Virus record (IMG/VR): IMGVR_UViG_3300037483_001170
Location: 42,781-106,780 of that record
Strand: one strand, 5' to 3'
DNA: 64,000 nt
Source of the DNA: a virus
Positions 5,161-27,074 of the stretch are shown piece after piece. Position 1 is the stretch's first letter. Each line of letters starts with the position of its first letter. Both the position numbers and the translations under genes were made by a program. The notes beneath the pieces are model-generated. The model was given only the letters and a program-made list of their open reading frames with translations, made no database searches and was not told the DNA's origin.

Positions 5161-5463
5161 TCACCGTGGACATGCAGACGGCAGCCGAGGATGCCGCCAG
5201 CCCCGAAGTACGTCGGCTGGCATCTGCGCATGTGCAGCCATCTGGGCCCGATAGTCGTACCGACGTAGGGCACGAACCTCTTCCTCGATCTGCGCAGCTG
5301 GCCAGCGATGACGCAGGCCTCGCTCTCGTACGAGCTTCTCCATCTCAGCCTTTGCCTGCTCGACCGCCGACGCGGGCGACAGCGCATCGAGAACGAGTAC
5401 CGAGATCTCGTCGTACCACGTGATACAAACGGAGTACTCGACCGATGCGCCGTCTGCTTGCAT
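5161..5463 (-). CDS. hypothetical protein
   Basis: ATG coupled to the upstream stop; MQADGASVEYSV... Confidence 0.5.
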   Translation of the reverse strand: MQADGASVEYSVCITWYDEISVLVLDALSPASAVEQAKAEMEKLVRERGLRHRWPAAQIEEEVRALRRYDYRAQMAAHAQMPADVLRGWRHPRLPSACPR

Positions 5464-6605
5464 CAGACCGTCTCGTACACGTACGTGCCGCGCTCGCCGG
5501 TACGCGTCAGCTTGCCGGCCTTCACCAGGTTGTAGACCGTCTGCATGACGACGTCCTGATCGATGTGCGAGAGCTTCGCGATGAGAGCGCCCATCTTCAT
5601 CGGCGATCGGCACGCGTCGAGCACGGCGCCGACGCGAGAGCCAGGCGGCGCGATCTTCTTGGCCTTCTTGGTACCGGACTTCAGCGACACACCCTCGCGG
5701 GACGCTTCGGACTCGATCGCGCGATCCAGCTGCGCGCGCGCTGCCACGGCCGCCGCCTTCGCCTTGACCGGCTTGGCCGACGCCTTCGGAAGCGTGTAGA
5801 GGTACTGGTAGCGCGCACCCGTGCGCACCAGCCTGCCCGTGCGCACCAGTTCGCTGACCGCTGCGTTCACCGTGCTCTCCGTCGCCGCCGCGCCGACGCG
5901 TGCGCGAACGGCACCCATGTTCATCGGAACGTCGCCACACGCAGCCAGTATGGCGTCGCGCGCGGTCATCGGCGCCGGCAGCACGTTCACGACGGCTGAC
6001 GCCGTCGACTCGCTCGGCAGCGCGTAGAGGTACTTGCCAGACGAGCCGGTGCGCACCAGCAGCTTGGCCTTCACGAGCGCCAAGATCGCCGGTCGCACCG
6101 AGTTGTCGTCAGCGTCGATGCGCATGCGCTGACGAAGCTCGGTCGTCCCGATACCGACTGCGCGCCCGGCTGCGCGCACCGCCAGCAACACCTTCTCGCG
6201 CATGGTGCCCGGCGCAGCGATCACGCGCTCACGCACAGCGTTCGGCGCCTTCGTGGTCTCGGCCCCCTTGACGCTCTTCGTTACCAGCATCTTCGCGGCC
6301 GTGGCCGTGAGCTGAGCCTCGGGCGTGCCGATCTGCATCGAGCCGAAGTGGCTGGTCAGCACACTGATCGCGTCGTCGAGGATCGCGATGCCATCCACGA
6401 GCCGCTGCCGCTCCTCTTCCGTCGACACCACCGACGCTCGCAGCTCGTACAGACGCGCATCGCGTTCGCCGAGTAGCGCAGCTCGCTTCGAGCGCTCGCC
6501 CTGCATCTCGCCCAGAGCCTTCCGCGCCTGCGCGATGTGCTCGCCCATGGTGTGAGCGAGCTGTTGCGCCATCTTCGTCACGTCCACCGTCTTCGCTGTC
6601 GTCAT
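5463..6605 (-). CDS. coiled-coil plus triple winged-helix DNA-binding protein
   Basis: Three repeats: LVKAKLLVRTG..YLY, LVRTGRLVRTG..YLY, LVKAGKLTRTG..YVY; N-terminal heptads. Confidence 0.7.
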   Translation of the reverse strand: MTTAKTVDVTKMAQQLAHTMGEHIAQARKALGEMQGERSKRAALLGERDARLYELRASVVSTEEERQRLVDGIAILDDAISVLTSHFGSMQIGTPEAQLTATAAKMLVTKSVKGAETTKAPNAVRERVIAAPGTMREKVLLAVRAAGRAVGIGTTELRQRMRIDADDNSVRPAILALVKAKLLVRTGSSGKYLYALPSESTASAVVNVLPAPMTARDAILAACGDVPMNMGAVRARVGAAATESTVNAAVSELVRTGRLVRTGARYQYLYTLPKASAKPVKAKAAAVAARAQLDRAIESEASREGVSLKSGTKKAKKIAPPGSRVGAVLDACRSPMKMGALIAKLSHIDQDVVMQTVYNLVKAGKLTRTGERGTYVYETV

Positions 6606-6670
6606 CTTCCCAGTCTTTCTTTTCTTCTGCCCAGATCTGCCCAGAAGCGCGCCGTTCGGACGCGCCTCGC

Positions 6671-6964
6671 TTACCTGCCGTCCATCACACGGCGCCACTT
6701 GTCGAGTACGCGCTCGATCGCGTCTGGATCAGGCGTTGCCTGCTGGTCTGCCCAGGCCTCCAGCGCCTCCTGGAACACGTCCTGAAGCGCGAGCAGCGTA
6801 TCGATACGCTCGCCGTTGACCTTAGAGATCACGCGATCGATCGCTTCCAGCGCCCACTCTGCGTTGGCCGAACGATCCGCCTTACGAACGGTTTCCGCCG
6901 CCTCATCGTCGAGAAGAGCCGCACGCACACGCGCCCTGTACTGCCCCCGAGTCGCTGCGCTCAC
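6671..6964 (-). CDS. hypothetical protein
   Basis: Coupled ORF in the leftward cluster. Confidence 0.55.
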   Translation of the reverse strand: MSAATRGQYRARVRAALLDDEAAETVRKADRSANAEWALEAIDRVISKVNGERIDTLLALQDVFQEALEAWADQQATPDPDAIERVLDKWRRVMDGR

Positions 6965-7257
6965 GAAAGCCCCCACGTCGCCTCACGCGCCGAGACCGCC
7001 GAGTCGTGGATCACCTGCTGCGAGAGGCCATCGAGACCCGCCTCGAACATCGCGCGCAGCTCCGGATGATCACGCAACGCATCGGCCCGCGCGTGGCTCG
7101 GCCCTTCGAACAAAAGGGCGCAGATCTCACGCGCGACCTCCGCACGACGCTGATCGTCGCTGAGTCGGCGAAAACCGACGCCCCATCGCGTCGCCGCGCG
7201 AATCGCGCACTTGCGGCCAACCGTTCGAAGCAGGTCGTGCGTATGTTCGGTGAGCAT
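6961..7257 (-). CDS. hypothetical protein
   Basis: ATG downstream of the promoter/hairpin cassette and an AAGGA SD. Confidence 0.6.
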   Translation of the reverse strand: MLTEHTHDLLRTVGRKCAIRAATRWGVGFRRLSDDQRRAEVAREICALLFEGPSHARADALRDHPELRAMFEAGLDGLSQQVIHDSAVSAREATWGLS

Positions 7258-7273
7258 CTGAACGTTCCTTCCG

Positions 7274-7355
7274 GCCGGCATGGTCGCCAGCTCAACGAGC
7301 GTGATTCTAGTCAGCCATCGGTCGCTGTCAAGCGCCTAGCGCAACAAAGCGCAGC
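7274..7355 (-). promoter_or_regulatory. sigma70-type promoter plus leader hairpin (copy 1)
   Basis: TTGACA(7331-7326)-N16-TAGAAT(7309-7304); GCTGGC-GACCAT-GCCGGC; upstream GCTGCGCTTTGTTGCG. Confidence 0.75.
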
Positions 7356-7365
7356 AACGTCCGAC

Positions 7366-7701
7366 CTAGCGCCAGAAATAGATCGTCGAGTAGTTGCCCC
7401 CGGTCTTGCTCGCGAAGTTCGCCGCCGCCAGGATCTCCGCCGCGTCGCAGCACTTTCCGACGTCGCGCGTGGCGATGATGTCAAGCAGCACGCGCTTGGC
7501 CGAGTCGTGCAGCCAGCCCCCGTCGTCGAAGAGCAGGCTGGCAGCGGGTGACCGCGGAACATCGCGGTACGGGTCGCCGAGCGTTGGGCAGTTGCCTCGC
7601 GCGTCGAACAGCTCCGCCAACCTCTTCGCGTCGTCCACGGCCTTCTCCTCAGCTTCGTGCTCGGCCCACTCGCGATGATGCCGCTTCTCTCGGCGGCTCA
7701 C
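7366..7701 (-). CDS. hypothetical protein
   Basis: GTGA-coupled ORF. Confidence 0.55.
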   Translation of the reverse strand: MSRREKRHHREWAEHEAEEKAVDDAKRLAELFDARGNCPTLGDPYRDVPRSPAASLLFDDGGWLHDSAKRVLLDIIATRDVGKCCDAAEILAAANFASKTGGNYSTIYFWR

Positions 7702-7997
7702 GACTTCGCCGCCCGCTCGCCCATCAGCGGCATCACCGCCGCAGCGAAGCCCGCGTCCGTGTGCGTCTCGCGCTTCCGGATGCAGTCGGCTTCCGCTTGC
7801 TCCAGCGTGTCGCCGCCGCCGAACGTCTCGTCGCGGCGTCCGTGGGGACCGCGCGCCTTCGGCCTCAGCGTACGAACGCTGACCGTCCACGACGAACCGT
7901 CGCGCATGACGCCGAAGCGAACCTCTACGTCCTCCGCGTTGCAGCCGAACGCAGCGGCCACGCGCTTGACGGTGGCGATGAACTTCTGATCCTTCAT
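7698..7997 (-). CDS. hypothetical protein
   Basis: GGAG SD; follows a promoter cassette. Confidence 0.65.
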   Translation of the reverse strand: MKDQKFIATVKRVAAAFGCNAEDVEVRFGVMRDGSSWTVSVRTLRPKARGPHGRRDETFGGGDTLEQAEADCIRKRETHTDAGFAAAVMPLMGERAAKS

Positions 7998-8009
7998 GAC
8001 GCTCTCCCG

Positions 8010-8066
8010 AGCCAGCTTGTTGGCCGGCTTCCCAGCTCACACTAGCCATCGCCAGAACGGTGTCAA
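8010..8066 (-). promoter_or_regulatory. sigma70-type promoter plus leader hairpin (copy 2)
   Basis: TTGACA-N16-TAGTGT; AGCCGGC-CAACAA-GCTGGCT. Confidence 0.8.
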
Positions 8067-8067
8067 G

Positions 8068-8592
8068 CTACTTACGCTCTTCTGGTTTTCCGCAGAACAG
8101 GCAGTAGTCGTGACACGTGTCTTCGTCATCGTCGTAGACGCACTTCGGAAGGGGGTTCTCCGCAGCCGGGCACTCGTGATAGCCCACGAAAGGGTTCTCG
8201 ATCGATGCAGTCAGCTTCTCGACCGCCCGTGCGCCCAGGAGTGCGTACTGCTTGCTGCGCGCCTCACGGAGCCTCTCGATCTGAGCATCGAGCTTCGCGA
8301 TGCGCGCGAGAAGCGCCGCAGCCTCTGCCGACGGGACACGACGAACAGCCGGCTCGCCGCGTCGCACACGCCGACCCGACAGCATCTTGCCGATCTTCTT
8401 GGCCAGCTCAGCGTGCAGATCCCGATCGAGCACATCGCCAAGGCTGAGGCCGCCCCGCCCAAACGTGCCACTCGTGCGCGTCGTCCACCGACCGTCCGAC
8501 CTCACCTGCACCTTGACGAGCGCGGCGTCGTCATCGCAGCGCGACACGAGAGCCCGGTACTTCACACCATCGTGCTGAACCTGCGAAATCAT
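8068..8592 (-). CDS. hypothetical protein with C-terminal Cys/His cluster
   Basis: GAGGAG SD; HEC..C..C..CLFC. Confidence 0.65.
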   Translation of the reverse strand: MISQVQHDGVKYRALVSRCDDDAALVKVQVRSDGRWTTRTSGTFGRGGLSLGDVLDRDLHAELAKKIGKMLSGRRVRRGEPAVRRVPSAEAAALLARIAKLDAQIERLREARSKQYALLGARAVEKLTASIENPFVGYHECPAAENPLPKCVYDDDEDTCHDYCLFCGKPEERK

Positions 8593-8610
8593 GGTTTCCG
8601 CTCTCCTCTG

Positions 8611-8667
8611 AGCCAGCTTGTTGGCCGGCTTCAGCCAAGACAATAACACCTCCTCTCCGCGCGTCAA
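8611..8667 (-). promoter_or_regulatory. sigma70-type promoter plus leader hairpin (copy 3)
   Basis: TTGACG-N16-TATTGT; hairpin identical to copy 2. Confidence 0.8.
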
Positions 8668-9016
8668 GCGTCAGACCACAACAGATCGCAGCACAGCCAA
8701 GACAGTATCCATGCCAGCGGCCGTCCACCTCATCGCCAATTTCATTACTAGCGGACGAGGCCGGCGCCTGGAGGGAGATTCCAGTAGTAGCCTGTAGGAC
8801 AACGCGAAACCATTGGTTTTTTCTGCCATCGCCAGTTTCCGTGCCAGCCGGACAGGCCGAGCCCCAGCCCCTTCGGTGCTACCCGTGGTCGTCTGAAAAC
8901 GGCGGGGCGTAGACGGGCGCTGGCGGGCGGCAATCCACGTGGTCACGTATGGTTATTCCAGAAGGCTCGATATACCTCTCTCTATGCACGAAACAGCATC
9001 TTGTTGGACCCCGCGC

Positions 9017-9072
9017 TTGACACCGGTCTAACCATCGCTAGAGTCGTGGGGTGAGCCAGCAAACACGCTGGC
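9017..9072 (+). promoter_or_regulatory. sigma70-type promoter plus leader hairpin (copy 4)
   Basis: TTGACA(9017)-N16-TAGAGT(9039); GCCAGC-AAACAC-GCTGGC. Confidence 0.8.
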
Positions 9073-9089
9073 CGGACGGAAAGAGATAG

Positions 9090-9515
9090 ATGGCACAGTT
9101 CACCACGATCCAGTTCCGCAACCGCTTGGGCGGCATCGAGTATCCGGGCTCGCGCGAGGAAGCGACCTTCCGCGGACCGGACCAGCACCGTGATGCCAGC
9201 GACGTGCTCGACCGGCTCGTTGCGTCTGACCCCGAGACGTGGGCAGATGCTGGTCTGACGCTCGTGACGCACGAGATCGACGATGCGGCGATCGCGACCG
9301 GCGCCGACGCACCGCTGCATCCCGGGCACGCGGTCCTTCGCGTTCTGATCCCCGACACCGCCGCGAGACGCGCCTTCGTACAGAAGGCGTGTTCGGTTGC
9401 CGAGTGGTACCCGCCGCACCTCATCGCTGCCGTGGCCGAAGCGAACGGCCGCAAGCCGGTGAACGTGAGCCCCGAAGACGCGCGATCGGTGCGCGCCTTC
9501 ATCGAAAGCATCTGA
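9090..9515 (+). CDS. hypothetical protein
   Basis: First ORF after promoter copy 4. Confidence 0.65.
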   Translation: MAQFTTIQFRNRLGGIEYPGSREEATFRGPDQHRDASDVLDRLVASDPETWADAGLTLVTHEIDDAAIATGADAPLHPGHAVLRVLIPDTAARRAFVQKACSVAEWYPPHLIAAVAEANGRKPVNVSPEDARSVRAFIESI

Positions 9516-9525
9516 GGAGAGTCTC

Positions 9526-9849
9526 ATGCACAACAACACGGACGAAGACAAGATCGCGTACCTCATCGTGAGCGAACCCGGCGGTGTGGACGGCCGCGAT
9601 TCCGCGGACAAGGGCGGGCACATCCACACGGCGACGTTCGACAAGACCACGGCCGAAGCGCTGCACAAGAAGCTCGGACCGGGCTGGTACCGCATCGACA
9701 CGAAGATCGTCGTCGGCGTGGCCAAGTCGCGCGAGACCGCGATCAAGAAGCTCAGCGCGCTCGACCGGCTGCTCATCCTCGGCGAGAAGATCACCACGAC
9801 CCGTCGCGCGGTTCGGGAGCGGGACCATTCGGAAGGGAACCGCGGCTGA
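9526..9849 (+). CDS. hypothetical protein
   Basis: GAGGAG SD. Confidence 0.65.
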   Translation: MHNNTDEDKIAYLIVSEPGGVDGRDSADKGGHIHTATFDKTTAEALHKKLGPGWYRIDTKIVVGVAKSRETAIKKLSALDRLLILGEKITTTRRAVRERDHSEGNRG

Positions 9850-9854
9850 CGCCC

Positions 9855-10058
9855 ATGGCACACAACGAAGCGGACGACTACCGTCGAGCCGCCGCGCACT
9901 ACCGGGCGTGGACGCGTGTCGACGGTCTGCACAGCGACGAGCACTACAGCCTGGTCATGACCATCGAGGAGATGGTGAAGATGGCCAAGCAGTGCGAGCG
10001 TCGCGATACTGCAACGGAACGGTTTCTTGCCGGCGAAGACGAAAGCGAGGCTCCATGA
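9855..10058 (+). CDS. hypothetical protein
   Basis: Coupled ORF. Confidence 0.55.
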   Translation: MAHNEADDYRRAAAHYRAWTRVDGLHSDEHYSLVMTIEEMVKMAKQCERRDTATERFLAGEDESEAP

Positions 10059-10474
10059 ACAAGACCGCAGAAACGACCGTCCCCGACTCCGACGACCTTG
10101 CGTGCTGGGCACGCCCTGGCGTTGGCGCGTCGCCGTTCATCATGCTCATCAAGCGTCTGCGAGAGACGCGTGGACTCGGACTGCTCGACGCGAAAGTCCT
10201 GGTCGAAGCCTGGCAGCAGTCGGGGGCATTGCCGTTCCGAACGGACGTGCCCGCCGTACCGACGCACGTCCAGCTTCTGACCGGTCACCAAGTGCTCTGC
10301 AAGCTGGTGTCAAACACGGCCAAGCGCCGAGACGTCATCCGCATCGGCTGCGACGACCTGCTCTCCGGCGTGTGGAGCGCTTACCATCTGAAGTGTGCGT
10401 CGAAAGCGTGCATCGGCCGAGAGCCGACCGTCGGTGAGATCGCCGCCGTACGCGCGTTCTTCGAATCGCTCTGA
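10055..10474 (+). CDS. protein with ribosomal L7/L12 C-terminal-like motif
   Basis: IKRLRETRGLGLLDAKVLVE resembles IK.VR..TGLGLKEAK.LVE. Confidence 0.55.
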   Translation: MNKTAETTVPDSDDLACWARPGVGASPFIMLIKRLRETRGLGLLDAKVLVEAWQQSGALPFRTDVPAVPTHVQLLTGHQVLCKLVSNTAKRRDVIRIGCDDLLSGVWSAYHLKCASKACIGREPTVGEIAAVRAFFESL

Positions 10475-10484
10475 CGGGAACCGC

Positions 10485-10541
10485 TTGACAGCGCTTCGGT
10501 CGTAGCTAGAGTGTTCTTCGTGAGTCGCCCAACACGGCGGC
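10485..10541 (+). promoter_or_regulatory. sigma70-type promoter plus leader hairpin (copy 5)
   Basis: TTGACA-N16-TAGAGT; GTCGCC-CAACAC-GGCGGC; GGAGG SD follows. Confidence 0.8.
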
Positions 10542-10555
10542 CGGAGGGTGAGCGG

Positions 10556-10846
10556 ATGGCGAAGACGACGCACGAACAGGACATCGCGTGGCTCTGCGTC
10601 CAGGATGCCATGAAAGTGCTCGGAACGGGCTGGAACCACGTCAGCGACGACGTTCGCTGGGGTCTGGTCGCGTCGGAGATTCTCAGCGTCGTCGTCGGAC
10701 AGTCGGCGCTGACCGACGACGAGTACGCCACTGACAAGCGCCTCGGCGGCGTCGCGCTCTACACGCGAGAGCTGTGGCGCGTCGGCATGGCCATCAAGGA
10801 CAACGGCTGGAAGCGTCCGTGGGCGGTCAAGGCGGTGAAGTCGTGA
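10556..10846 (+). CDS. hypothetical protein
   Basis: GGAGG SD then ATG. Confidence 0.65.
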   Translation: MAKTTHEQDIAWLCVQDAMKVLGTGWNHVSDDVRWGLVASEILSVVVGQSALTDDEYATDKRLGGVALYTRELWRVGMAIKDNGWKRPWAVKAVKS

Positions 10847-11793
10847 CGCTGCGTGGAACGTGCCCGGCGTGCTTCCGGGACATGCCGGTCGGTCAGGTCG
10901 TCGCAGGCCCCGTGATGACGCGCCACGGCTGGCAGGAACAGGGCGGTCGCCAGGTCGGCGTGTACGGCCAGGCGTGGCATGCGGGTCAGTGCTTCGGCGT
11001 CGGCTGGACGCCGTTCGAACTCAGCACAGCGGGCACCGTCGCGTTCATCACGCAGGTTCTCTTCCCGCGTGCTCTCACACAGGAGAACGCACTCGCGCAT
11101 CTCGCGACGCGGCCCCCGCTCATCATCGACTTCGAGAACGAGGGCTATCTCCCGGGCTCGTCGCTGGTCGGAAAGTCGCGGGAGAAGTACAAGGCGCCGT
11201 ACCAGGCCCGACTCGTGGACGGCTTCCCGGGCGCACCGCGCACGACCCTCTACGTCGGCAACGAGAGCATCTACCTCGTCGGCCTTTCGTCGTACCAGGA
11301 TGCGCTTCAGAGCGAGATCGACCAGCATCGGGCTCTGCTCGGCTCGTTACGGCGCGAAGCGCTCGACTGCTTCGCCGCCATCTCCACGTGGAAGCTCGGG
11401 GAGCTTCGCGACGAAGAGCGCGTTCCGACGCGGCACTACAAGAACGAGGGCGCGCGGGTGCCGTTCTGCGGCTCACGGAGCCACGGCATCTTCTCGACCG
11501 ACGACGAGTCCATCGTGACGTGTTCACGGTGCAAGAAGGCGCTCGATGCGGACAAGGCCCTAGCCGCCAAGAACGCGCAGGTGCGAGCGGACAGCGCCGC
11601 GCTCACCGAGTGGCTCACGAAGCTCGGCAAGCACGCCAAGATCGCCGAGATCAAGAAGGGACTCGGATGGGACACCAAGCGCATCAACGCGGCGTTCGAC
11701 GTGGCGCGGCGCGCGAAGAAGGCGGATCACACCTTCTGGCTCGGCAACGCAACGGGGACGTGGTACTTCGCGCCGCCGCTGGTGCGAACGTGA
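10843..11793 (+). CDS. hypothetical protein with Zn-finger motifs
   Basis: GTCPAC..RHG..C and CSRC; GTGA coupling. Confidence 0.65.
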   Translation: MTLRGTCPACFRDMPVGQVVAGPVMTRHGWQEQGGRQVGVYGQAWHAGQCFGVGWTPFELSTAGTVAFITQVLFPRALTQENALAHLATRPPLIIDFENEGYLPGSSLVGKSREKYKAPYQARLVDGFPGAPRTTLYVGNESIYLVGLSSYQDALQSEIDQHRALLGSLRREALDCFAAISTWKLGELRDEERVPTRHYKNEGARVPFCGSRSHGIFSTDDESIVTCSRCKKALDADKALAAKNAQVRADSAALTEWLTKLGKHAKIAEIKKGLGWDTKRINAAFDVARRAKKADHTFWLGNATGTWYFAPPLVRT

Positions 11794-11803
11794 GGAGCGC
11801 GCG

Positions 11804-12016
11804 ATGAAGATCACGTCCGCAGACGAGAAGTACGTGCACATCATGCTCACCCAGTCGCCTGGGAAGCGGCGCGATCGCGCGATCGCAGAGCTGCTACGTC
11901 AGTCGGCCATCGCCATCGGCGAGGCGTGCGAATGCGGCTCGACGGACGTCGAGGAAGGCGCGCCGGGCCAGTACCGGTGCTGCGACTGCGACACGCGATG
12001 GGGACGGCACGAATGA
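11804..12016 (+). CDS. small Zn-ribbon protein
   Basis: CECGS..CCDC; GAGGAG SD. Confidence 0.6.
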   Translation: MKITSADEKYVHIMLTQSPGKRRDRAIAELLRQSAIAIGEACECGSTDVEEGAPGQYRCCDCDTRWGRHE

Positions 12017-12219
12017 CCCAGAGCGCGAACAAGGCGCACCCCAAGCGCGTCGTCCTGACCGCGGCCGCGCTCGGCGCGATGAACTCCGCAGTCTCCGCTG
12101 CGCTTTCCGGCGAAGAGGGCGAAGGCGACTGCGCCGACGTCACGTTTGCCGACCTCGAACGTGCGCAGGACTGGATTCACGCCGAATACGCCAGGCGCGC
12201 GAAGAGGCGGCGCGTCTGA
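12013..12219 (+). CDS. hypothetical protein
   Basis: ATGA coupling. Confidence 0.55.
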   Translation: MTQSANKAHPKRVVLTAAALGAMNSAVSAALSGEEGEGDCADVTFADLERAQDWIHAEYARRAKRRRV

Positions 12220-12222
12220 CAG

Positions 12223-12305
12223 CGCTGCGCTTTGTTGCGTCCGCTGCTTGACAGCGTACTGGCACATCGCTAGGATGGATCGAGTGAGCCGGCAAACACG
12301 CTGGC
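12223..12305 (+). promoter_or_regulatory. sigma70-type promoter plus leader hairpin (copy 6)
   Basis: GCTGCGCTTTGTTGCG; TTGACA(12248)-N17-TAGGAT; GCCGGC-AAACAC-GCTGGC; GAGGAG. Confidence 0.8.
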
Positions 12306-12316
12306 CGAGGAGACGG

Positions 12317-12664
12317 ATGATGAGCAAGAACCGACGCGTGGTGGTCTACGACTTCTCCTGGGACGACCAGGGTGATCTGGGCCTGTGGGTCTTCGACGGG
12401 CGCGAGGAAGTGCTCGTGGAGGCCATGGAGCGCATCTCGACGGAGGTCGAAACGCGCTACAACCGTCTCGGAGAGCCCAGCGGCGAGTACACGCTCGTCT
12501 CGGGCAAGCTACCGGAGGGCGCTGGCGTGCTGCTCCCGGGCGCGGCGAAGCCCGTCTTCGGCGTGGCCGCGGAGAGCGCGTGGGATCGCCTCGTGCGCGC
12601 TTCGCATGAGGGCGCGATGGTCGATAACGGTCGCGGCGTCGGCGGCATCGAGAGGGCGTCGTGA
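12317..12664 (+). CDS. hypothetical protein
   Basis: GAGGAG SD. Confidence 0.65.
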   Translation: MMSKNRRVVVYDFSWDDQGDLGLWVFDGREEVLVEAMERISTEVETRYNRLGEPSGEYTLVSGKLPEGAGVLLPGAAKPVFGVAAESAWDRLVRASHEGAMVDNGRGVGGIERAS

Positions 12665-13008
12665 GCAGCAACCTGGAAGACGTCGCCTGCTTCGTCGCCG
12701 TGCTCGCGCGCTACGCGCCGGCCGCGAAGCCTGCACAACTGATCGCGCGTGAGGCGCTCGCGATTCGCGATGATGCGGCTCGCCTGCACGCGCTCGCGGA
12801 GCACGAGTGCAACCGTGGGCTCACGGCGCAAGAGACCGCGCGCGAGCAGCGCATCCAGCAGCGTGTCGTCGCGGTGCTCGCCGAGTACGGGGTCACGCCC
12901 GACAACATCCGCTTCAACGGCGACCCGCGTGGGGCGGCGCTCAAGATTCGCTTCAAGAACGGCGAGACCCACGGCGACTTCGGCGGCGAAGGGCTCTGGT
13001 GCGTCTGA
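12661..13008 (+). CDS. hypothetical phage protein
   Basis: AEHECN..NGDPRG motif; coupled. Confidence 0.65.
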   Translation: MSSNLEDVACFVAVLARYAPAAKPAQLIAREALAIRDDAARLHALAEHECNRGLTAQETAREQRIQQRVVAVLAEYGVTPDNIRFNGDPRGAALKIRFKNGETHGDFGGEGLWCV

Positions 13009-13265
13009 TGAGCGACACAACCCCCATCGCGCTCATCGAGCGCCTCGCGGCTCGCATGGGCGTCTCCAAGCACCGCATCAACCTGGACTTCCGCATCTAC
13101 TCGGAAGAGGACGGCGGCCCCTCCTGGAGCATCTACGCGTCGATCCCGCAGAAGGACAAGCGCAAGGTCGACAGGACGCTGCACGCGGGCGGGCCGACGC
13201 TCGACGAAGCCGAGATCGAGATGCTGGAGACGTTCAGGCGCATGCAAGAGCGCGGAGAAGCCTGA
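13008..13265 (+). CDS. hypothetical protein
   Basis: TGATG coupling. Confidence 0.55.
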   Translation: MSDTTPIALIERLAARMGVSKHRINLDFRIYSEEDGGPSWSIYASIPQKDKRKVDRTLHAGGPTLDEAEIEMLETFRRMQERGEA

Positions 13266-13630
13266 TGGACAAGACGCCGAAGCCGATCGCGGCCGATCCG
13301 TATCTCAGCACCGATCGGACCGTACGCCGCGCGCTCATCCTCGACCAGGCGCGCGGCACGACGCTGGATCTGATCTCGGGGACCGCGAAGTGGGTCCGCA
13401 GCAGATTTCGAGATCTGGAACAGGATCTCCGCGAGATAGCCACCAGCGGCGCCGTCGATGCGAGCGATCTCATCCGCCAGCTGGCCTGCCTGCAAGGGCT
13501 GACGCATCAGCTCCACGCACAGAACACGGCGATGCTCGTGCTCTACGATCTGGCCACCGAGTGGCCGGCGGACGTCGAAGTCACGGTGCCTGCGTACACG
13601 GACTTCGTCCCCACGGAGAAGTCCACTTGA
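13265..13630 (+). CDS. hypothetical protein
   Basis: TGATG coupling, GGAG SD. Confidence 0.55.
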   Translation: MDKTPKPIAADPYLSTDRTVRRALILDQARGTTLDLISGTAKWVRSRFRDLEQDLREIATSGAVDASDLIRQLACLQGLTHQLHAQNTAMLVLYDLATEWPADVEVTVPAYTDFVPTEKST

Positions 13631-14040
13631 GCGACTTCTACGAGAAGCGGGCCGCCGAGTACGAGAAGCGGTGGCAGGACGAGATCGCCGCCGGCAAGAT
13701 CGTGCGCGCGGAGCGCGACGAGGCTCGACGCCTGCTGCGGCTCGCCGAGGCGACGCGCATGGAGGTCGACCGTGTTCACGCCGAGGCCGGCGCGCCGTAC
13801 GGAACGCCAGCCGACACGCGCGAGCTGGTGAAGCGTGTCATCGCATCGTGCGACGGCGACGGGCACACTTCGGTTCCGCAGACGTTCTGGGTGCTCAAGC
13901 ACCAGAGCGGCCTGTACATGAGGGACGGGCAAGGAGGCCCCGTCAGCAAGCCGCTCGATGCTGCGGCGTTTCACGTCAAGCCCGTCGCTCCCAGCGACTA
14001 CAAGGTCATGCGCGTCTGCGTCTACGAAGAGGAGGACTGA
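13627..14040 (+). CDS. hypothetical protein
   Basis: TTGA coupling, GGAG SD. Confidence 0.55.
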   Translation: MSDFYEKRAAEYEKRWQDEIAAGKIVRAERDEARRLLRLAEATRMEVDRVHAEAGAPYGTPADTRELVKRVIASCDGDGHTSVPQTFWVLKHQSGLYMRDGQGGPVSKPLDAAAFHVKPVAPSDYKVMRVCVYEEED

Positions 14041-14187
14041 CGTGCACTTCTGCACCGACGAAGCGCTCGCGCTCGCTGCGGCCGTGCCGATCATCGGCTT
14101 CGCGCTCCGTATGGGGCTCACGAGCCTGATCGGGCTCTACCGCCAGGCACGCACGCGGGTCACGCAGTTCCTAAACGGGAGAGACTG

Positions 14188-14862
14188 ATGAGCTACACCA
14201 TCAATCACTGGATCCTCATCAACGGCGGCATCGAGGAGGTTGCCTGGGCACACACCCTGGCCACGCAGATCTTCCCGCCCGAGCAGGTCTCGGCCGTCCT
14301 ACGCGCGGCCATCAACTACGGAGGCTACCTCAGCGTCGCACCAGACGGCAGCAAGGAGGGCTGGGACGTCTCGGACGATTTCGATCGGCGCCGAGCCGAG
14401 TTCATGGCCTCACTGCTCGTCGGCCGGCTGCTACATGACCATGTCATGTCGTGGACCGTCTTCGGGCTCGGTGAAGACGGCGAGGGGCCATCGATCATGG
14501 AGTACCACGACCCCCTGTTCTACGCGCTGCTCGAAGGCGAGCCCGTTCACGAGTACCACAACCTGACGCTCGCCCACGCGCTCACGCCTCTCGACATCCT
14601 CGTACCCGGACGGGAAAACGAGCGATGGCGCGGGTGCGTCAAGGCGCGGGTGGCCGCGATGTCAGACGCGGCCACAGGTCTAGTCGAGATCGTCTCGGCC
14701 GAAACAATGGTGCTAGCCAAGCTGCTCGATGCTCCCGACAAGTACGGAGCCATCGGCACGCCCGACAAGCTCAGCACGGGTGCGCGCGCGTTCTACGACG
14801 AACTCCTCGCCGATGCGCATCACGCCTTTCCCGGCGCTCACGCGAGCGTCCGATTCCGATGA
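14188..14862 (+). CDS. hypothetical phage protein
   Basis: APDGSKEGW motif; GGAG SD. Confidence 0.65.
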   Translation: MSYTINHWILINGGIEEVAWAHTLATQIFPPEQVSAVLRAAINYGGYLSVAPDGSKEGWDVSDDFDRRRAEFMASLLVGRLLHDHVMSWTVFGLGEDGEGPSIMEYHDPLFYALLEGEPVHEYHNLTLAHALTPLDILVPGRENERWRGCVKARVAAMSDAATGLVEIVSAETMVLAKLLDAPDKYGAIGTPDKLSTGARAFYDELLADAHHAFPGAHASVRFR

Positions 14863-15092
14863 CCGCACGCTCCACCACCGTCGTCCACGCCGGCCGGACG
14901 TGGCTCGTAGAGCTTCCGCCGGTCACGAGCCGGCACGAGTGCCCCCGCGTCGACGGGACGCCGGCTGACGACCCCGAGGACGTCCGGATGTTCGCGTACA
15001 AGCTCGGCGACCGCTGGCACTCGCCGGGCTACACGCACCCGGGGCTCGCTGCGGCGTTCAACACCGCGATCGGCGCGCTCGAAAGCAGCTGA
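14859..15092 (+). CDS. hypothetical protein
   Basis: ATGA coupling. Confidence 0.5.
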   Translation: MTARSTTVVHAGRTWLVELPPVTSRHECPRVDGTPADDPEDVRMFAYKLGDRWHSPGYTHPGLAAAFNTAIGALESS

Positions 15093-15119
15093 CTGTCAGA
15101 CAATCTTGCGCCCTGCCAC

Positions 15120-15176
15120 TTGCACTCGGTCGGTGGCGTGCTACATTGATTTCCGTTGAGCCCGCCGACAAGCGGG
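15120..15176 (+). promoter_or_regulatory. sigma70-type promoter plus leader hairpin (copy 7)
   Basis: TTGCAC-N16-TACATT; CCCGC-CGACAA-GCGGG; GAGGAG. Confidence 0.7.
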
Positions 15177-15193
15177 ACGAGGAGCGAGAGACC

Positions 15194-15490
15194 ATGGAGC
15201 GGACAAGCGACGACCTGGAGGCGGATGCGATCTTCGAGGAAGAAGATCGCGAAGACGAAGAGCGCCAGATGGAGCGGTACCTGCCGTTCGAGCGGCTCGT
15301 CGAAGAAGAGAAGTCCATGCGGGCGGAGATCATCGCGCTCCGGCGCCATGTGAGGCGGCTGGAGCGCGAGAAGGCCGCGCTCATGGGCAGCTGGCTCGCG
15401 GCTACCGAGCGCGCCAGTAGTAATATGCTGCTGGCAGCGCTCGCCGGTGCCTTCGACCAGAAGCCAGAAGCCGGAAAGGAGGGCGCATGA
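15194..15490 (+). CDS. acidic coiled-coil hypothetical protein
   Basis: ATG after the cassette. Confidence 0.6.
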   Translation: MERTSDDLEADAIFEEEDREDEERQMERYLPFERLVEEEKSMRAEIIALRRHVRRLEREKAALMGSWLAATERASSNMLLAALAGAFDQKPEAGKEGA

Positions 15491-15690
15491 CGACGTACGC
15501 CGCGCGCGACCTGTTCCTCTACGTGAAGGGCAGGCTCATCACCGCCCAGTCGTTCTCGCTCGTCCTCTCAGACAACGGCATCACCATCAAGCTGCCGAGC
15601 GGTACCGAGGTCACCGACTACGACCTGGACACTGCCATCAAGGTGGCCAACCACGTCCTCACGGAAGCCGGAAAGGTGGAAGCGCCATGA
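15487..15690 (+). CDS. hypothetical protein
   Basis: GGAGG SD, ATGA coupling. Confidence 0.6.
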   Translation: MTTYAARDLFLYVKGRLITAQSFSLVLSDNGITIKLPSGTEVTDYDLDTAIKVANHVLTEAGKVEAP

Positions 15691-15989
15691 GCACGTCGAA
15701 GACCCTCGGTAACGCCGAGCCAACCGATGCCGAGCGCCAGCGGATGATCGTCGTTCTCGACGGTCTCCGGGAGCGGTTGTTCAACGCTCGTGGCAGCAGG
15801 TTCCATCCCGCAGCCTTCAACGAGGACGACGGCACGGTCGAGCTTCGCCATGTCGATGGTGGCCGAGCCTTGATCTCGGCCTGGATCCACGGCGAGGGCA
15901 GCAGCCGTGCGCTGCTCGTGTGGCGTCATCCGACGTACCGCTACGAACAGGATGACGCGTACCTGCACGCGGCGAAGGTGACGAAGTGA
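15687..15989 (+). CDS. hypothetical protein
   Basis: ATGA coupling. Confidence 0.55.
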   Translation: MSTSKTLGNAEPTDAERQRMIVVLDGLRERLFNARGSRFHPAAFNEDDGTVELRHVDGGRALISAWIHGEGSSRALLVWRHPTYRYEQDDAYLHAAKVTK

Positions 15990-17446
15990 CCGCCCCGCAC
16001 TTCGAGGTCGACCGCGTCGGCCTCCGCAAGCTGCTCGCCCGGCGCGGCATCGAGTTCGCGGCGCTGGAGCTGCTTCAGAACGCGCTCGACGAGAAGTCGA
16101 CGTGCGTGCACGTGAAGCTCGAACCGCACGCGACGCGCGGCTCGTACGTGCTCACGGTCGCGGACGACAACCCCGATGGCTTCGCCGACCTGCGTCACGC
16201 CTACACGCTCTTCGCGGAGTCGGCCAAGAAGGGCAACCCCGAGCAGCGCGGCCGCTTCAACCTCGGCGAGAAGCTGGTCATCGCGGCGGCCACGCATGCG
16301 GAGATCGTGACCACGACGGGTCACATCGTCTTCGATGAAGACGGCCGTCGCAGCCAGCGCAGTCGCACGGAGTCCGGCAGCGTCGTCACCGCGCGCCTGC
16401 GCATGACGAAGGATGACGTCGAACGCACCGAGCGCGCGCTTCGCACCGTGCTCGTGCCGCCGGATGTCGTCGTGACGCTGAACGGGGGGCGCCTGCCGTC
16501 GCGCATCATGCAGGCCTCGTTCGAAGCGCGACTGGCCACTGAGATCGCCGACGACGATGGCTACCTCAGGCCGACCGAGCGCCTCACGCGCGTGAACCTC
16601 TACCCCGTCGAAGGTGGCGAGACGCCCACGCTCTACGAGATGGGCATCCCGGTCGTCACGCTCGACGGTGCATGGCACGTCGACGTCTGCCAGAAGGTTC
16701 CGCTCAACACCGACCGCGACAACGTCACGCCCGCATACGCGCGGCGCATCCGGGCGCTGGTCGTCAACGAGATGCACGGTCAGCTCGGCGAGCACGCGAA
16801 GGCTGCGTGGGTCGACGACGCCATCGAGAGCAAGCTCGTAAGCGACGAGGCGGTCACGGCCGTGCTCACCGAACGCTACGGCGAGCGGCGCGTCATCCGC
16901 GACCTGAACGACCCCGAGGGCACCAAGCTCGCGATGAGCAAGGGGTACTCGATCATCGAGCCCGGCAGCTTCTCGGGGCCAGCCTGGGAATCCATCCGCC
17001 GAGCAGGAGCTGCGCTACCCGCCGGCAAGGTCACCCCGAGCCCGAAGGTCGTGTTCTCCGCTGGTGGCGAGGACGTCAGCGTGGATCCGAGCACGTGGAG
17101 CGCGGGCATGCGCCGCGTCGTCGACTTCACCGATGCACTCGGCCCGAAGCTGCTCAACGGCGTGCGAATCCGCGTCGACATCGTCAACGACCCGAGGGGC
17201 TACGCCGCGTGCTTCGGTGACGGCACGCTGCTCTTCAACCTGCGCCGTCTCGGTCGCGTGTGGTTCGAGAAGGGGCCCCTCGACGAGGAAGTGCTCCAGC
17301 TCATCATTCATGAGGTCGGACATTTCTACGTTTCAGATCACCTCAGCGAGGGCTACCACGACGCGCTGTGCAAGCTCGGAGCGCGCCTCAGCCGCCTTGC
17401 ACTCGACGAGCCCGCGTTCTTCTCGCGCTGGCGGTGGGCGTCGTGA
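15986..17446 (+). CDS. GHKL (Hsp90/MORC/MutL-like) ATPase with C-terminal HExxH zincin-like motif
   Basis: ELLQNALD (N box), VADDNPDGF (G1), RGRFNLGEK (G2), IIHEVGH..H. Confidence 0.8.
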   Translation: MTAPHFEVDRVGLRKLLARRGIEFAALELLQNALDEKSTCVHVKLEPHATRGSYVLTVADDNPDGFADLRHAYTLFAESAKKGNPEQRGRFNLGEKLVIAAATHAEIVTTTGHIVFDEDGRRSQRSRTESGSVVTARLRMTKDDVERTERALRTVLVPPDVVVTLNGGRLPSRIMQASFEARLATEIADDDGYLRPTERLTRVNLYPVEGGETPTLYEMGIPVVTLDGAWHVDVCQKVPLNTDRDNVTPAYARRIRALVVNEMHGQLGEHAKAAWVDDAIESKLVSDEAVTAVLTERYGERRVIRDLNDPEGTKLAMSKGYSIIEPGSFSGPAWESIRRAGAALPAGKVTPSPKVVFSAGGEDVSVDPSTWSAGMRRVVDFTDALGPKLLNGVRIRVDIVNDPRGYAACFGDGTLLFNLRRLGRVWFEKGPLDEEVLQLIIHEVGHFYVSDHLSEGYHDALCKLGARLSRLALDEPAFFSRWRWAS

Positions 17447-17969: not shown

Positions 17970-18258
17970 CCATGCGCATTCATCACAAGCATCCGGACGT
18001 CCGATGGCTTCCGAACGGGCGCTGGATACTCAGCGTCCGTGAAGCCGGTCGCATCACACACTGGGGCGGCTACACGTCCGCGAGCGGCGAGCACCTGGCA
18101 GACGGCGTCTGCGCGTCCTGGCCCGTCGCGCACCGCAAGCAGGGCCGAGGTCTCGGCGCGCGCAAGCGCCGCATGCGCGAGGCTCGCGCACAGCGCGCGG
18201 CATGCACGCGCCAGCAACAGGGATGGCGCTAGCAGCGCAAGGCGTGCGGTCTGACACC

Positions 18259-18310
18259 GCTGTGCTTTGTTGCGCGCGCGCTTGACAGCGCGCTCGTGTG
18301 AACTCAGAAT
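18259..18310 (+). promoter_or_regulatory. sigma70-type promoter with upstream box (no hairpin)
   Basis: GCTGTGCTTTGTTGCG; TTGACA(18282)-N17-CAGAAT. Confidence 0.6.
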
Positions 18311-23840: not shown

Positions 23841-24539
23841 CTAGTTCGCGCCTGAATCAGGTCCAGGGCTCGCCTGCGTTGTCCAGTACCCGGGCATCCC
23901 GAACGGCGACCACTTCGACTGCGGCACCGTGAGAAACGAGAAGACCTGATCGCCGGTGACCGGTCGACCGTCCGCCGTCTTCACCGACAGCGTCCAGCCA
24001 GTCATGGGCCCGTTCGAGTGCGTGAGCACGAGATTCAGGCCGGCGACCGAGAGCGATGCGCCGCTTGTGGCCTGCATGGTTTCCAAGAATGCTGGCGGAA
24101 ACCCGGTGAGCGAGCCGCGAAGCTCTGGCGCGAACATCGCCGCTGCCTCTGGCTGCACGCTCGCCGGAGCTGACGAGCGTCTTGAGCGTTCGGCGGCGCC
24201 GGCATCAGCATGGCGGTCACCGTTCCAGCACCACTCTGGCCAGTAGAACATCGCCTGTCCGGTCGGAGTCTCGTTGGCAGTCGGGAAGCCGTGGGCCTCC
24301 GTGAGACCGGCGGTCGCCATGCGCGCACCAACGGCCGTTGCCCGCTCGCCGGCTGCGAGCTGTGGATCGAAGCCTACGCAGCCCAAGAACTCGACTGGAA
24401 AATAGCCAGCGCGTCGCACAATGGCCTTCAGGCCCTCTGACGTCGGCGCCTTGCGCTCAGCAGCGTCTGCCGCGAGGTGGCACTTCTTGTACTTCCTGCC
24501 GGACCCGCAGTGGCACTCGTCGTTTCTGCCTAGGCTCAT
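23841..24539 (-). CDS. SEC-C motif-containing protein
   Basis: N-terminal LGRNDECHCGSGRKYKKCH. Confidence 0.8.
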   Translation of the reverse strand: MSLGRNDECHCGSGRKYKKCHLAADAAERKAPTSEGLKAIVRRAGYFPVEFLGCVGFDPQLAAGERATAVGARMATAGLTEAHGFPTANETPTGQAMFYWPEWCWNGDRHADAGAAERSRRSSAPASVQPEAAAMFAPELRGSLTGFPPAFLETMQATSGASLSVAGLNLVLTHSNGPMTGWTLSVKTADGRPVTGDQVFSFLTVPQSKWSPFGMPGYWTTQASPGPDSGAN

Positions 24540-26000: not shown

Positions 26001-26360
26001 TCACGTGCCGCCGTCTCTTCGCCGCGTCCGCGACCAGCTGCTGAGTAGCTCCGCGGCGGCCTCAAGATCGTCGCCGCCGCGAAGGGCTTCGTACTCAGCA
26101 TGCTGTCTGGCGTCGAACGCCGCAAGATCATCCGCGAACTTCTCCTCGATCGCTTCCATGCGTGCCTCGCCGGCCTGCACGGCGGCATCAAGACGCTCTG
26201 CGATCACAGCCTCGCCAGGACCAGCGTCGATGCCGGTCGTGATCGGCTCTCCGCCACCATCGTGCATGGGGCCGCAGCCACGGCCGGCGACGAACACGAC
26301 AAGCAGCAGAAGAACGGCCGCTACGGCGACAAGAATCAGCTGCGTGCGTGTGAGCGTCAC
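26001..26360 (-). CDS. N-terminally anchored or lipoprotein-like coiled-coil protein (spanin candidate)
   Basis: LILVAVAAVLLLLVVFVAGRGC then a helical domain. Confidence 0.55.
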   Translation of the reverse strand: MTLTRTQLILVAVAAVLLLLVVFVAGRGCGPMHDGGGEPITTGIDAGPGEAVIAERLDAAVQAGEARMEAIEEKFADDLAAFDARQHAEYEALRGGDDLEAAAELLSSWSRTRRRDGGT

Positions 26361-27015: not shown

Positions 27016-27074
27016 GCCGACAGGGTACACCGGACGCGCTACGGTAGCCAAGGTCGTGGCAAAGCGCTGCGAGC

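Follow-up and report, generated by a model that had tools for sequence, protein, structure and literature searches.

A shared promoter–hairpin cassette heads small ORFan genes of an uncultured virus-like element and may tag their messages

An uncultured virus-like element of ~300 kb and its relatives carry many small ORFan genes headed by one shared cassette. What does the hairpin in this cassette do, and does it act as RNA or as DNA? We analysed a stretch of 64,000 nucleotides (the window), positions 42,781 to 106,780 of IMG/VR record IMGVR_UViG_3300037483_001170 (106,780 bp; G000). An earlier note had described seven copies there, suggesting a 5′ stabiliser, a boxB-like antitermination site or the binding site of a phage RNA-binding protein.

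Results

The cassette consists of (G)CTTGACA, 16–17 nt, TAnnnT, 9–13 nt with GA at the end, a 6-bp G+C stem enclosing a 6-nt loop (N-R-A-C-A-H), 1–4 nt, a Shine–Dalgarno (SD) tract and ATG, the distance from SD to ATG being more variable than that from stem to SD. By its sequence it is a predicted self-contained expression unit with a host sigma-70-type promoter. From these motifs we infer promoter activity and the position of the transcription start site (TSS).

All seven hairpins in the window have the coordinates, sequences and strands first reported. On the minus strand, cassette 1 (7255..7333; covariance-model score 61.5 bits, as for the bit scores below) has −35 TTGACA at 7331-7326, −10 TAGAAT at 7309-7304, hairpin GCTGGC-GACCAT-GCCGGC at 7291-7274, SD GGAAGGA and the ATG (7257-7255) of a 98-aa ORFan (6961-7257). 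Cassette 2 (7995..8068, minus; 69.6 bits) has TTGACA at 8066-8061, TAGTGT at 8044-8039, (A)GCCGGC-CAACAA-GCTGGC(T) at 8029-8010 and SD GGGAG before the ATG (7997-7995) of a 99-aa ORFan; the same hairpin recurs at 8630-8611 in cassette 3 (8590..8669, minus; 60.9 bits), between TTGACG at 8667-8662 with TATTGT at 8645-8640 and SD GAGGAG with ATG at 8592-8590, heading a 174-aa ORFan. On the plus strand, cassette 4 (9015..9092; 71.5 bits) combines TTGACA at 9017-9022, TAGAGT at 9039-9044, GCCAGC-AAACAC-GCTGGC at 9055-9072 and a purine-rich SD with ATG at 9090 (141-aa ORFan), and cassette 5 (10483..10558, plus; 72.1 bits) has TTGACA at 10485-10490, TAGAGT at 10507-10512, GTCGCC-CAACAC-GGCGGC at 10524-10541 and SD GGAGGG with ATG at 10556 (96-aa ORFan). 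Cassette 6 (12246..12319, plus; 64.4 bits) has TTGACA at 12248-12253 and, after a 17-nt spacer, TAGGAT at 12271-12276, followed by GCCGGC-AAACAC-GCTGGC at 12288-12305 and SD GAGGAG with ATG at 12317 (115-aa ORFan). Cassette 7 (15118..15196, plus; 49.6 bits) has a weak −35, TTGCAC at 15120-15125, with TACATT at 15142-15147, CCCGC-CGACAA-GCGGG at 15161-15176 and SD GAGGAG with ATG at 15194, heading a 98-aa acidic ORFan.

The main features described earlier thus recur in every copy: a TTGACA-like −35 (TTGACA in five, TTGACG and TTGCAC in one each) and a TAnnnT −10, separated by 16 nt in all copies but cassette 6 (17 nt); an SD-like tract and ATG after each hairpin; and a loop fixed at 6 nt with ACA in six of seven (GACCAT being the exception). 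The distance from promoter to hairpin, given as 10–12 nt, had to be widened, the gap from −10 to stem being 9–13 nt. The count of seven was too low for the record as a whole. A covariance-model scan of its full length, a check that the note had proposed, returned 11 matches with E values from 1e-17 to 1e-11, the next candidate being above 0.1. Four of the 11 lie ahead of the window, and a 298-kb relative (G001) carries 12 copies. Besides these four, the earlier list lacked a copy without a promoter and a precedent in T4-type phages, both described below. A strict whole-cassette pattern matched five times in the window, against 0.00 expected from 100 dinucleotide shuffles. CTTGAC-N16/17-TAnnnT sites are followed by the hairpin in 10 of 11 cases in this record and 8 of 12 in the 298-kb relative. 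Copies lie on both DNA strands, and in every one the hairpin is oriented as its gene. No Rfam family matches the hairpin, and across the viral and prokaryote collections scanned the cassette occurred in this lineage only.

Neighbouring elements recur as well. Upstream of cassette 6 (12207..12240, plus) lies a GTCTGAC palindrome within a terminator-like hairpin, followed by GCTGCGCTTTGTTGCG, and some version of this element accompanies about half of all cassettes, for example before cassette 1 (7340-7366, minus) and cassette 3 (about 8670-8700, minus). Another (18244-18275, plus) precedes a TTGACA promoter without a hairpin. The element may either terminate the unit before it or serve as a DNA operator. 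A conserved non-coding block of about 210–250 nt (8777..8987, plus) adjoins cassette 4 upstream at the divergence point of the island, and it recurs ahead of one further cassette in this record and three in the 298-kb relative.

The genes behind the cassettes are not shared in this way. No two first genes of the 11 cassettes are paralogous, and only two of the 11 have an orthologue in G001. The island at 49.5–58.7 kb of G000 is syntenic with 60.5–66.6 kb of G001, with cassettes kept and genes replaced. Both genomes also have a promoter-less copy: ahead of a ParB-like gene stands GCGCGC-GGACAT-GCGCGC, with C and then an SD after it, as the sole block of that intergenic region conserved between them. 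Because its arms form a perfect palindrome at the DNA level and it stands before a gene of the parB type, this copy could instead be a DNA site.

To characterize the hairpin, we aligned 29 copies from four contigs. In support of the note's claim that stems change while pairing is kept, 97.1% of stem cells are paired and five of six pairs show double-sided changes. The covariation score of 0.51 (0.22 ± 0.02 in shuffles) was reached by none of 500 shuffles, and slid controls gave at most 55% pairing. In a 17-copy set, 99% of cells are paired, with double-sided changes at four of six pairs, matched by none of 500 shuffles. On the sense strand there are 149 Watson–Crick stem cells, 20 G·U and no A·C; with the outermost pair set aside, every non-Watson–Crick cell is a G·U on that strand, and the G·U pairs occupy at least eight distinct positions or orientations. 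A direct repeat of a palindromic hexamer was ruled out by non-palindromic stems such as GTCGCC/GGCGGC, GCAGGC/GCCTGC, CCCGC/GCGGG and ATCGCC/GGCGAT. Single-sequence folding energies are unremarkable (z −1.9 to +0.7), and SD accessibility shows a slight excess in a rough comparison (0.53, against 0.43 in the record's other genes).

The loop is more constrained than the stem. All 29 copies have C4 and A5, and 27 have A3; the length is 6 nt throughout, and the loop sequence is kept across relatives with 45–62% protein identity. At orthologous sites before a conserved 305-aa gene (no Pfam family, no fold match), the NRACAH loop is kept while the stem has changed: GCCGGC-AAACAC-GCTGGC in G000, GTCGGC-AAACAC-GCCGGC in G001, GTCGGC-CAACAA-GCCGGC in L053 and GGCGGC-CAACAA-GCCGTC in L054. 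Loop positions 1 and 6 are linked (A..C in 10 copies, G..U in 8, C..A in 7), with mutual information of 1.13 bits reached in 0 of 10,000 permutations, a value uncorrected for relatedness of the copies. Because the copies are related, part of the loop conservation and of the association of positions 1 and 6 could come from shared ancestry within three cassette subfamilies and not from selection.

Discussion

Stems that covary, G·U pairs found only on the sense strand, orientation that follows the gene and a conserved loop make a cis-acting RNA on the transcribed strand the best reading of these sequences, in line with the note's preference for RNA over a DNA palindrome. That the hairpin lies inside the RNA and near its 5′ end is predicted from promoter geometry alone; both its presence in the RNA and its distance to the 5′ end therefore depend on the predicted TSS. 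We give roughly even credence to a more specific proposal, that the hairpin is a 5′-leader RNA tag beside the ribosome site whose loop is read by a trans factor; no candidate loop-binding protein was identified.

The main rival to a tag that is read is a passive 5′-terminal stem-loop, possible but the less expected outcome. With the loop unread, such a structure would block 5′-end-dependent decay (by RppH and RNase E, or RNase J) and insulate the ribosome site from upstream sequence, as in the ompA, papA and T7 gene 10 leaders. By promoter geometry, only 1–6 unpaired nucleotides would precede the stem, and mRNA is stabilised by 5′-terminal stem-loops, RppH requiring unpaired 5′ nucleotides (PMC3997798). 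A T7 gene 10 stem-loop upstream of the SD raised expression 1.5- to 3-fold in high-GC C. necator (PMC6146998). Here, too, pairing alone is kept while stem sequence is free, and the SD is unpaired in predicted folds; most of the data would also fit a stabiliser that acts passively and favours one stable loop. A mere clamp, however, has no need for a fixed loop length or an ACA conserved across such diverged relatives, and the promoter-less copy at the ParB-like gene is internal, away from any primary 5′ end, though it might become exposed by processing.

The loop of boxB in lambdoid phages is read by a phage protein, and that of P22 boxB is GACAA. An antitermination site of this kind, at which RNA polymerase takes up an N-like virus protein (or, as in HK022 put, the RNA alone) and then reads through downstream terminators, is unlikely here. 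The hairpin is likewise small, G+C-rich, A-rich in the loop and near a promoter, the loops CGACAA and AGACAC contain the GACA of P22, and terminator-like elements lie between cassette units. Yet among the three functions first proposed boxB fits worst, because the loop is a hexaloop and not a GNRA-like pentaloop, the alignment holds no conserved boxA-like block between −10 and stem or after the stem, and each promoter has a single hairpin. With its own promoter in every unit, read-through is less needed; moreover, the hairpin abuts the SD, one promoter-less copy precedes an internal cistron, and no N-like protein was identified.

We consider it similarly improbable that the cassette is a DNA-level element with no RNA role, whether as an operator that overlaps +1 to +20 and binds a dimeric repressor or as a hot spot of recombination for gene shuffling. 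Cassettes do persist while island genes are swapped, as in shuffling mediated by the T4-type cassettes discussed below (PMC2839356), the commonest arm, GCCGGC, is itself palindromic, and a repressor could well act from a site directly after the −10. A sequence-specific binder, though, would keep arm sequence and not complementarity, whereas these arms vary and covary; the 20 mismatches, each a G·U on the sense strand, would without exception be A·C on the opposite one; and conservation falls on the spacer, which is not palindromic. Any repeated 75-bp cassette could undergo homology-driven shuffling as a side effect, which is compatible with an RNA role. Least probable by far is that the exposed ACA serves an ACA-specific endoribonuclease of the MazF type as target or decoy, which would tie expression of the ORFan set to the host's toxin–antitoxin or defence state: the conserved ACA is single-stranded and just upstream of the SD, and the E. 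coli enzyme cuts unpaired ACA, leaderless mRNAs being reported as products of its cleavage ahead of start codons (PMC3997798), but the idea is pure inference and leaves conserved loop positions 2, 3 and 6 unexplained.

Among known systems the closest appear to be the PeSL (promoter-early stem-loop) mobile regulatory cassettes of the T4-type phages RB49/phi1, PST and nt-1 (Arbiol et al. 2010, PMC2839356; Comeau et al. 2014, PMC4122927). In both, a strong promoter of sigma-70 type is joined to an SD and to a stem-loop that includes G·T pairs, and both are concentrated in hyperplastic regions and head ORFans that differ between close relatives; as a whole, the present cassette seems to behave like PeSL, as the constant element of a gene-exchanging island. 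The PeSL stem-loop lies between or over −35 and −10, or upstream, and downstream of −10 in one subclass only; it is read as a terminator or attenuator plus recombination site, and its conserved part is a G-run/C-run stem. The present hairpin, in contrast, is always downstream of −10, in the predicted transcript and without a U-tract, its stem varies and covaries while the loop is invariant at C4 and A5, and a separate terminator-like element lies upstream. Membership in PeSL was rejected on the position downstream of −10 and the lack of a U-tract. No T4-type hallmark genes were found in the carrier, and five tailed-phage hallmark Pfam families had no match in this record or in a 90%-complete relative. 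The labels 'phage' and 'early genes' in the note are assumptions.

Other leader elements share parts of this design. In the ompA and papA (E. coli) and T7 gene 10 leaders, a hairpin likewise lies a few nucleotides from the predicted 5′ end and upstream of the SD, with decay protection and higher expression expected (PMC3997798; PMC6146998); such stabilisers act by structure alone, whereas here loop length and sequence are conserved in 29 copies, and the element is a multi-copy regulon tag with one copy internal to an operon. The boxB of the lambda and P22 nut sites is similar in its short G+C stem, its A-rich loop and its place close to where early transcripts begin, but its 5-bp stem, GNRA-like pentaloop, boxA partner, two sites per genome and distance from the SD all differ from what is seen here. 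The HTH proteins Aca2 and Aca1 bind conserved 5′UTR hairpins of phage operons, Aca2 repressing translation, and these acr-aca hairpins of phage early or anti-defence operons are small and covarying, as ours are (PMC13551039). The RNA motifs of the Aca systems resemble the DNA inverted repeats to which the same HTH protein binds, and arm sequence is accordingly conserved, whereas arms are free here; they occur at one or few operons, against 11–12 copies per genome here, where no Aca-like gene was identified. T4 uses translational operators (PMC3014915). These (RegA sites, gene 32, gene 43) are RNA elements at or beside the ribosome-binding sites of many early messages through which a phage protein shuts translation off in step; RegA sites are unstructured and A/U-rich, and for gp43 the operator is one hairpin, present once, whose loop has 8 nt. 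None shows evident sequence similarity to the present hairpin.

If the hairpin is indeed a tag that is read, the transcript would begin 1–6 nt before the 6-bp G+C hairpin, with the SD 1–4 nt 3′ of the stem and then the start codon, giving the messages of many unrelated small ORFan genes a common leader. Stem sequence would be free provided that pairing holds and the loop held to N-R-A-C-A-H with C4 and A5 invariant; from this pattern we infer a trans-acting factor, virus-encoded or host, that would read the loop. Adjoining the ribosome-binding site, it would set translation and/or stability jointly for the whole gene set, and the 5′-end stem would also protect each message against 5′-end-dependent decay.

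Anatomy and copy number of the cassette

The leader hairpin that follows promoter-like sites at seven places in the window (7274-15176) is real and conserved. Direct reading of the region bore out the sequence, coordinates and strand that the earlier note had given for each hairpin. All seven copies carry a TTGACA-like -35 and a TAnnnT -10, mostly separated by a 16-nt spacer (17 nt in one), and each hairpin is followed 1-4 nt past the stem by a purine-rich SD and then an ATG. The hairpin does lie downstream of the -10, as described; the gap between them, which had been put at 10-12 nt, is really 9-13 nt and closes with GA(G). Judged by sequence, the repeated intergenic unit is a sigma-70-like promoter, of predicted activity, together with an SD heading the next gene. 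With the transcription start predicted at the seventh nt after the -10, 1-6 unpaired nt would precede the stem. The promoter consensus, CTTGAC-N16-CTAnnnT, is similar to the alphaproteobacterial sigma-70 consensus CTTGAC-N17-CTATAT (PMC2873474), a hint as to the possible host of this high-G+C genome.

Matching to a strict whole-unit pattern gave 5 sites in the window vs 0.00 expected (100 shuffles), and a simple sigma-70 scan independently recovered five of the cassette units. The window is the final 64 kb of a 106,780-bp linear IMG/VR-type virus record (G000; CheckV completeness 47%), and the count of seven claimed earlier holds for the window; the whole record contains eleven, the additional four lying upstream. 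A covariance model of the cassette (R1), built from 17 copies, matched 11 sites in G000 and 12 in a related contig, G001 (E from 1e-17 to 6e-6; next-best E > 0.1). Addition of two shorter relatives, L053 and L054, brought the total to 29 copies (alignment A3). Strong CTTGAC-N16/17-TAnnnT sites are accompanied by the hairpin in 10/11 cases in G000 and 8/12 in G001.

Stem covariation and the RNA strand

In the 29-copy alignment, 97.1% of stem cells are paired, both sides have changed in five of the six stem pairs, and the observed covariation was reached by 0/500 shuffles. As a control, sliding the partner by 1-3 columns reduced pairing to only 10-55%. The 174 stem cells comprise 149 Watson-Crick pairs, 20 G·U, 0 A·C and 5 others, these last confined to the outermost pair. 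Numerous stems are non-palindromic (GTCGCC/GGCGGC, GCAGGC/GCCTGC, CCCGC/GCGGG, ATCGCC/GGCGAT), so the signal is a true inverted repeat; a direct repeat of the palindromic hexamer GCCGGC is thereby ruled out.

The suggestion that stem changes preserve an RNA structure rather than a DNA palindrome is upheld by the strand on which the wobbles fall. Copies occur on both DNA strands, always in the orientation of the gene, and the 20 G·U pairs lie on the sense strand and would read as mismatches on the opposite one. Sense-strand wobbles and gene-matched orientation are as expected of an RNA structure and unlike a protein-bound DNA palindrome, and action at the RNA level is the best reading of the alignment. 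Thermodynamic z-scores of single-sequence folds were weak. In a comparison too coarse to serve as evidence, predicted SD accessibility was 0.53 in the cassettes vs 0.43 in other genes of the record. Two further candidates were rejected: an intrinsic terminator, as there is no U-tract on either strand, and an RNase III site, for which the stem is far too short.

The loop

The fixed loop length of 6 nt noted for the window copies extends to 29/29 copies, with the consensus N-R-A-C-A-H. C4 and A5 are present in 29/29 and A3 in 27/29. Positions 1 and 6 combine as A..C (10 copies), G..U (8), C..A (7), C..C (2), A..U (1) and U..C (1). Their mutual information is 1.13 bits; 0/10,000 permutations reached this value, which is not usable as a probability because the copies are related. 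The pattern suggests that three loop classes are maintained or, alternatively, that positions 1 and 6 form a wobble-type closing pair under an R-A-C-A tetraloop. A free stem with a fixed loop is characteristic of elements that are read by something.

The genes behind the cassettes

The eleven first genes behind the cassettes of G000 encode small proteins that belong to no Pfam or PHROG family and include no paralogues of one another. Just 2/11 have an orthologue in G001, vs 68/124 ORFs overall. The two genomes are collinear, and the island that holds the seven copies of the window (G000 49.5-58.7 kb) corresponds to G001 60.5-66.6 kb; almost all of its genes have been replaced between the two, and 6-7 cassettes are retained in both. 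The genes that flank the island, at window 5463-6698 and 15986-17446, are conserved.

The largest protein headed by a cassette (305 aa) has homologues at 43-62% identity. Its protein alignment retrieved G001, a 297,749-bp virus contig that is 90% complete, and the metagenome contigs L053 (13.7 kb) and L054 (4.5 kb). In all three, the 305-aa orthologue is preceded by a cassette whose stem differs but whose loop is of the same kind; a more distant homologue locus (L057) has no cassette. The predicted fold of the 305-aa protein (mean pLDDT 72) had no PDB match at E <= 0.001.

The viral status of the record is the classification of its source. We found no DNA similarity to 50,697 deposited phage genomes, and the tailed-phage hallmark families Terminase_6N, Terminase_6C, Phage_portal, Phage_capsid and Phage_sheath_1 (Pfam) had no match in G000 or in the 90%-complete G001. 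Most large proteins of both genomes are without a PHROG. The proteins that were found include an M23-type peptidase/endolysin-like protein, a ParB-like protein, an integrase, an exonuclease, TnpB, helicases and a nicotinamide phosphoribosyltransferase (NAMPT; window 27380-28801, minus strand) with both Pfam domains; the SNF2 helicase had distant matches only (<= 33% identity), in phages and plasmids. The carrier may be a very divergent jumbo phage, another type of virus or a large plasmid-like element. Separately, a 1047-aa UvrD-type helicase (plus strand, G000 26264-29407, or 6264-9407 of the stretch L002) has an intein-like interruption, with weak Intein_splicing and Hint_2 matches, and the 903-aa RtcB-like RNA ligase of G001 appears over-long.

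Distribution in sequence collections

The exact hairpin gave 48 single matches in IMG/VR, which we regard as chance because all lack the promoter and lie in coding or terminator contexts. A scan of IMG/VR with the cassette pattern returned only G001, plus two weak chance matches; with a degenerate pattern, the matches listed after filtering included the G001 copy and a lone look-alike in three related low-G+C contigs. Among 596 Gb of prokaryote genomes, the cassette pattern had 26 scattered matches, none of which scored with the R1 model. Single-protein searches of IMG/VR recovered no relatives, nor did the protein alignment when run against prokaryote genomes.

The three look-alikes (L134:3807-3881, L158:1384-1458 and L133:936-1009) each have one TTGACA-17-TATAAT promoter, then GAA-ATTAGC-GAACAC-GCTRAT and an SD, and their layout and loop class are as in the cassettes. 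Their best R1 E was 4e-4 and, with a single copy per contig, the resemblance may be chance or convergence.

Comparison with described systems

The cassette was not found described in the literature searched, and the Rfam comparison proposed earlier matched it to no family: the 64-kb window gave 0 matches at gathering score and, at a relaxed E <= 5 over 7000-16000, the sole match was unrelated, sub-threshold and located elsewhere. PeSL cassettes of T4-type phages combine a sigma-70 promoter, a stem-loop with G·T pairs and an SD ahead of ORFans, and are shuffled by recombination in hyperplastic regions (PMC2839356; PMC4122927). Their stem-loop, a terminator or attenuator of upstream transcription, has a conserved stem sequence and in most cases sits inside the promoter or upstream of it (PMC2839356; PMC4122927). 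The present unit shares the architecture, as far as its sigma-70-like promoter and SD can be judged by sequence, and the tie to ORFans in regions that differ between related genomes. Unlike in PeSL, every hairpin here lies downstream from the -10, with a free stem and a fixed loop. A C and the purine-rich SD come next, and neither strand has a T-run; the carrier, unlike a T4-type myovirus, gave no match to phage DNA or to the five hallmark Pfam families. The cassette is thus not a PeSL member, though PeSL is the closest described system: it departs from it on two defining points.

Aca2 and Aca1 bind hairpins in phage 5'UTRs (PMC13551039); in Aca-type systems the arms match a conserved DNA inverted repeat of the same regulator, whereas the present arms differ among copies and covary. 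T4 translational operators are another functional analogue (review: PMC3014915).

Elements beside the cassette

A hairpin-only scan yielded one clear promoter-less case, inside an operon in both genomes. This hairpin (GCGCGC-GGACAT-GCGCGC; G000 24167-24184, L002:4167-4184; G001 92777) is followed by a C and an SD before a ParB-like gene, and is the sole block of its intergenic region conserved between G000 and G001. Its position links the hairpin with the ribosome site or with processing of the message, not with the promoter as such. As a perfect palindrome next to parB, this one copy could possibly have a DNA role.

A separate element lies upstream of roughly half of the cassettes and stops ~10 nt before the -35. 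It consists of a GTCnGAC palindrome, often enclosed by a terminator-like hairpin, then GCTGCGCTTTGTTGCG, with the tail GCTGCG(C/A)TTTGTTG(C/T)G. Window copies lie at 12207-12240 (+), 7340-7366 (-), ~8670-8700 (-), 15090-15102 (+) and 18244-18275 (+), with many more in G000 and G001. The element also precedes other promoter-like sites without a hairpin, including TTGACA-17-CAGAAT at 18282-18310 (+), which lies before a 614-aa AAA-ATPase gene and belongs to the small number of strong sites that lack the leader hairpin. The TTGTTG in the tail of the upstream element has complements in the CAACAA/AACA loops of leader hairpins, which may or may not be meaningful.

Five cassettes in the two genomes have a conserved non-coding block of ~210-250 nt, constant in orientation, immediately before them (window 8777-8987 (+); L001:8120-8330, in another stretch of G000; and upstream of the G001 cassettes at 100926, 64728 and 254061). 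Its invariant stretches include ATTCCAGTAGTAG, CGTGCCAG, CTTCGG, TGGTCACGTATGGTCA and TACCTCTCTCTA. The block is predicted to form a single long imperfect hairpin with an energy no better than that of shuffles (z = -1.0) and sparse covariation, and it had no Rfam match.

Possible functions of the hairpin

The hairpin may be an RNA leader tag, read through its loop, that would act on the translation and/or stability of cassette-driven genes; we judge the balance for and against this reading to be about even. Its main rival, which we consider unlikely, is a passive 5' stabiliser and insulator. Stem-loop stabilisers at 5' termini are a functional analogue (PMC3997798), and the T7 gene 10 stem-loop before an SD raises expression in a high-GC host (PMC6146998); function in that family depends on pairing, not on the sequence of the loop. 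Here the pairing is under selection and the loop is conserved as well, although the family has no need of the latter. Such stabilisers begin within about 0-4 unpaired nt of the primary 5' end; the start predicted here would leave 1-6. Two minor alternatives are a DNA-only role, against which the sense-strand wobbles speak, and a link to an ACA-specific RNase, which would concern the A-C-A of the loop. Also minor, and the worst fit, is boxB-like antitermination: the lambdoid nut boxB has a 5-bp stem and a GNRA-like pentaloop, whereas the present stem is 6 (5-7) bp under a hexaloop in 29/29 copies, boxA is absent (the columns from -10 to stem in A3 are unconserved except for GA(G) before the stem), each unit carries a promoter of its own, and the hairpin lies against the SD.

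Tentatively, the leader tag could be the address label of a post-transcriptional regulon, in which an RNA-binding factor, encoded by the virus or hijacked from the host, would read a fixed apical fold, with a wobble-type 1/6 closing pair (G·U, A·C, C·A) under an R-A-C-A tetraloop, and switch all cassette-driven orphan genes together by turning their translation or decay on or off jointly. New genes would enter the regulon merely by landing behind a cassette. A lineage-specific 'loop code' for early messages of phages could be widespread, with the cassette as one example.

For work in high-G+C hosts, the cassette supplies a promoter-leader-RBS part that is compact and insulated by nature, and the covariance model is a marker for relatives of a lineage with almost no recognizable proteins. 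Should a factor indeed read the loop, a large uncultured virus-like element would govern a fast-evolving set of orphan genes post-transcriptionally via a 20-nt RNA tag. A gene recombining behind the cassette would gain both promoter and tag, and an RNA layer would be added to the PeSL idea, which has hitherto comprised only promoter, terminator and recombination site.
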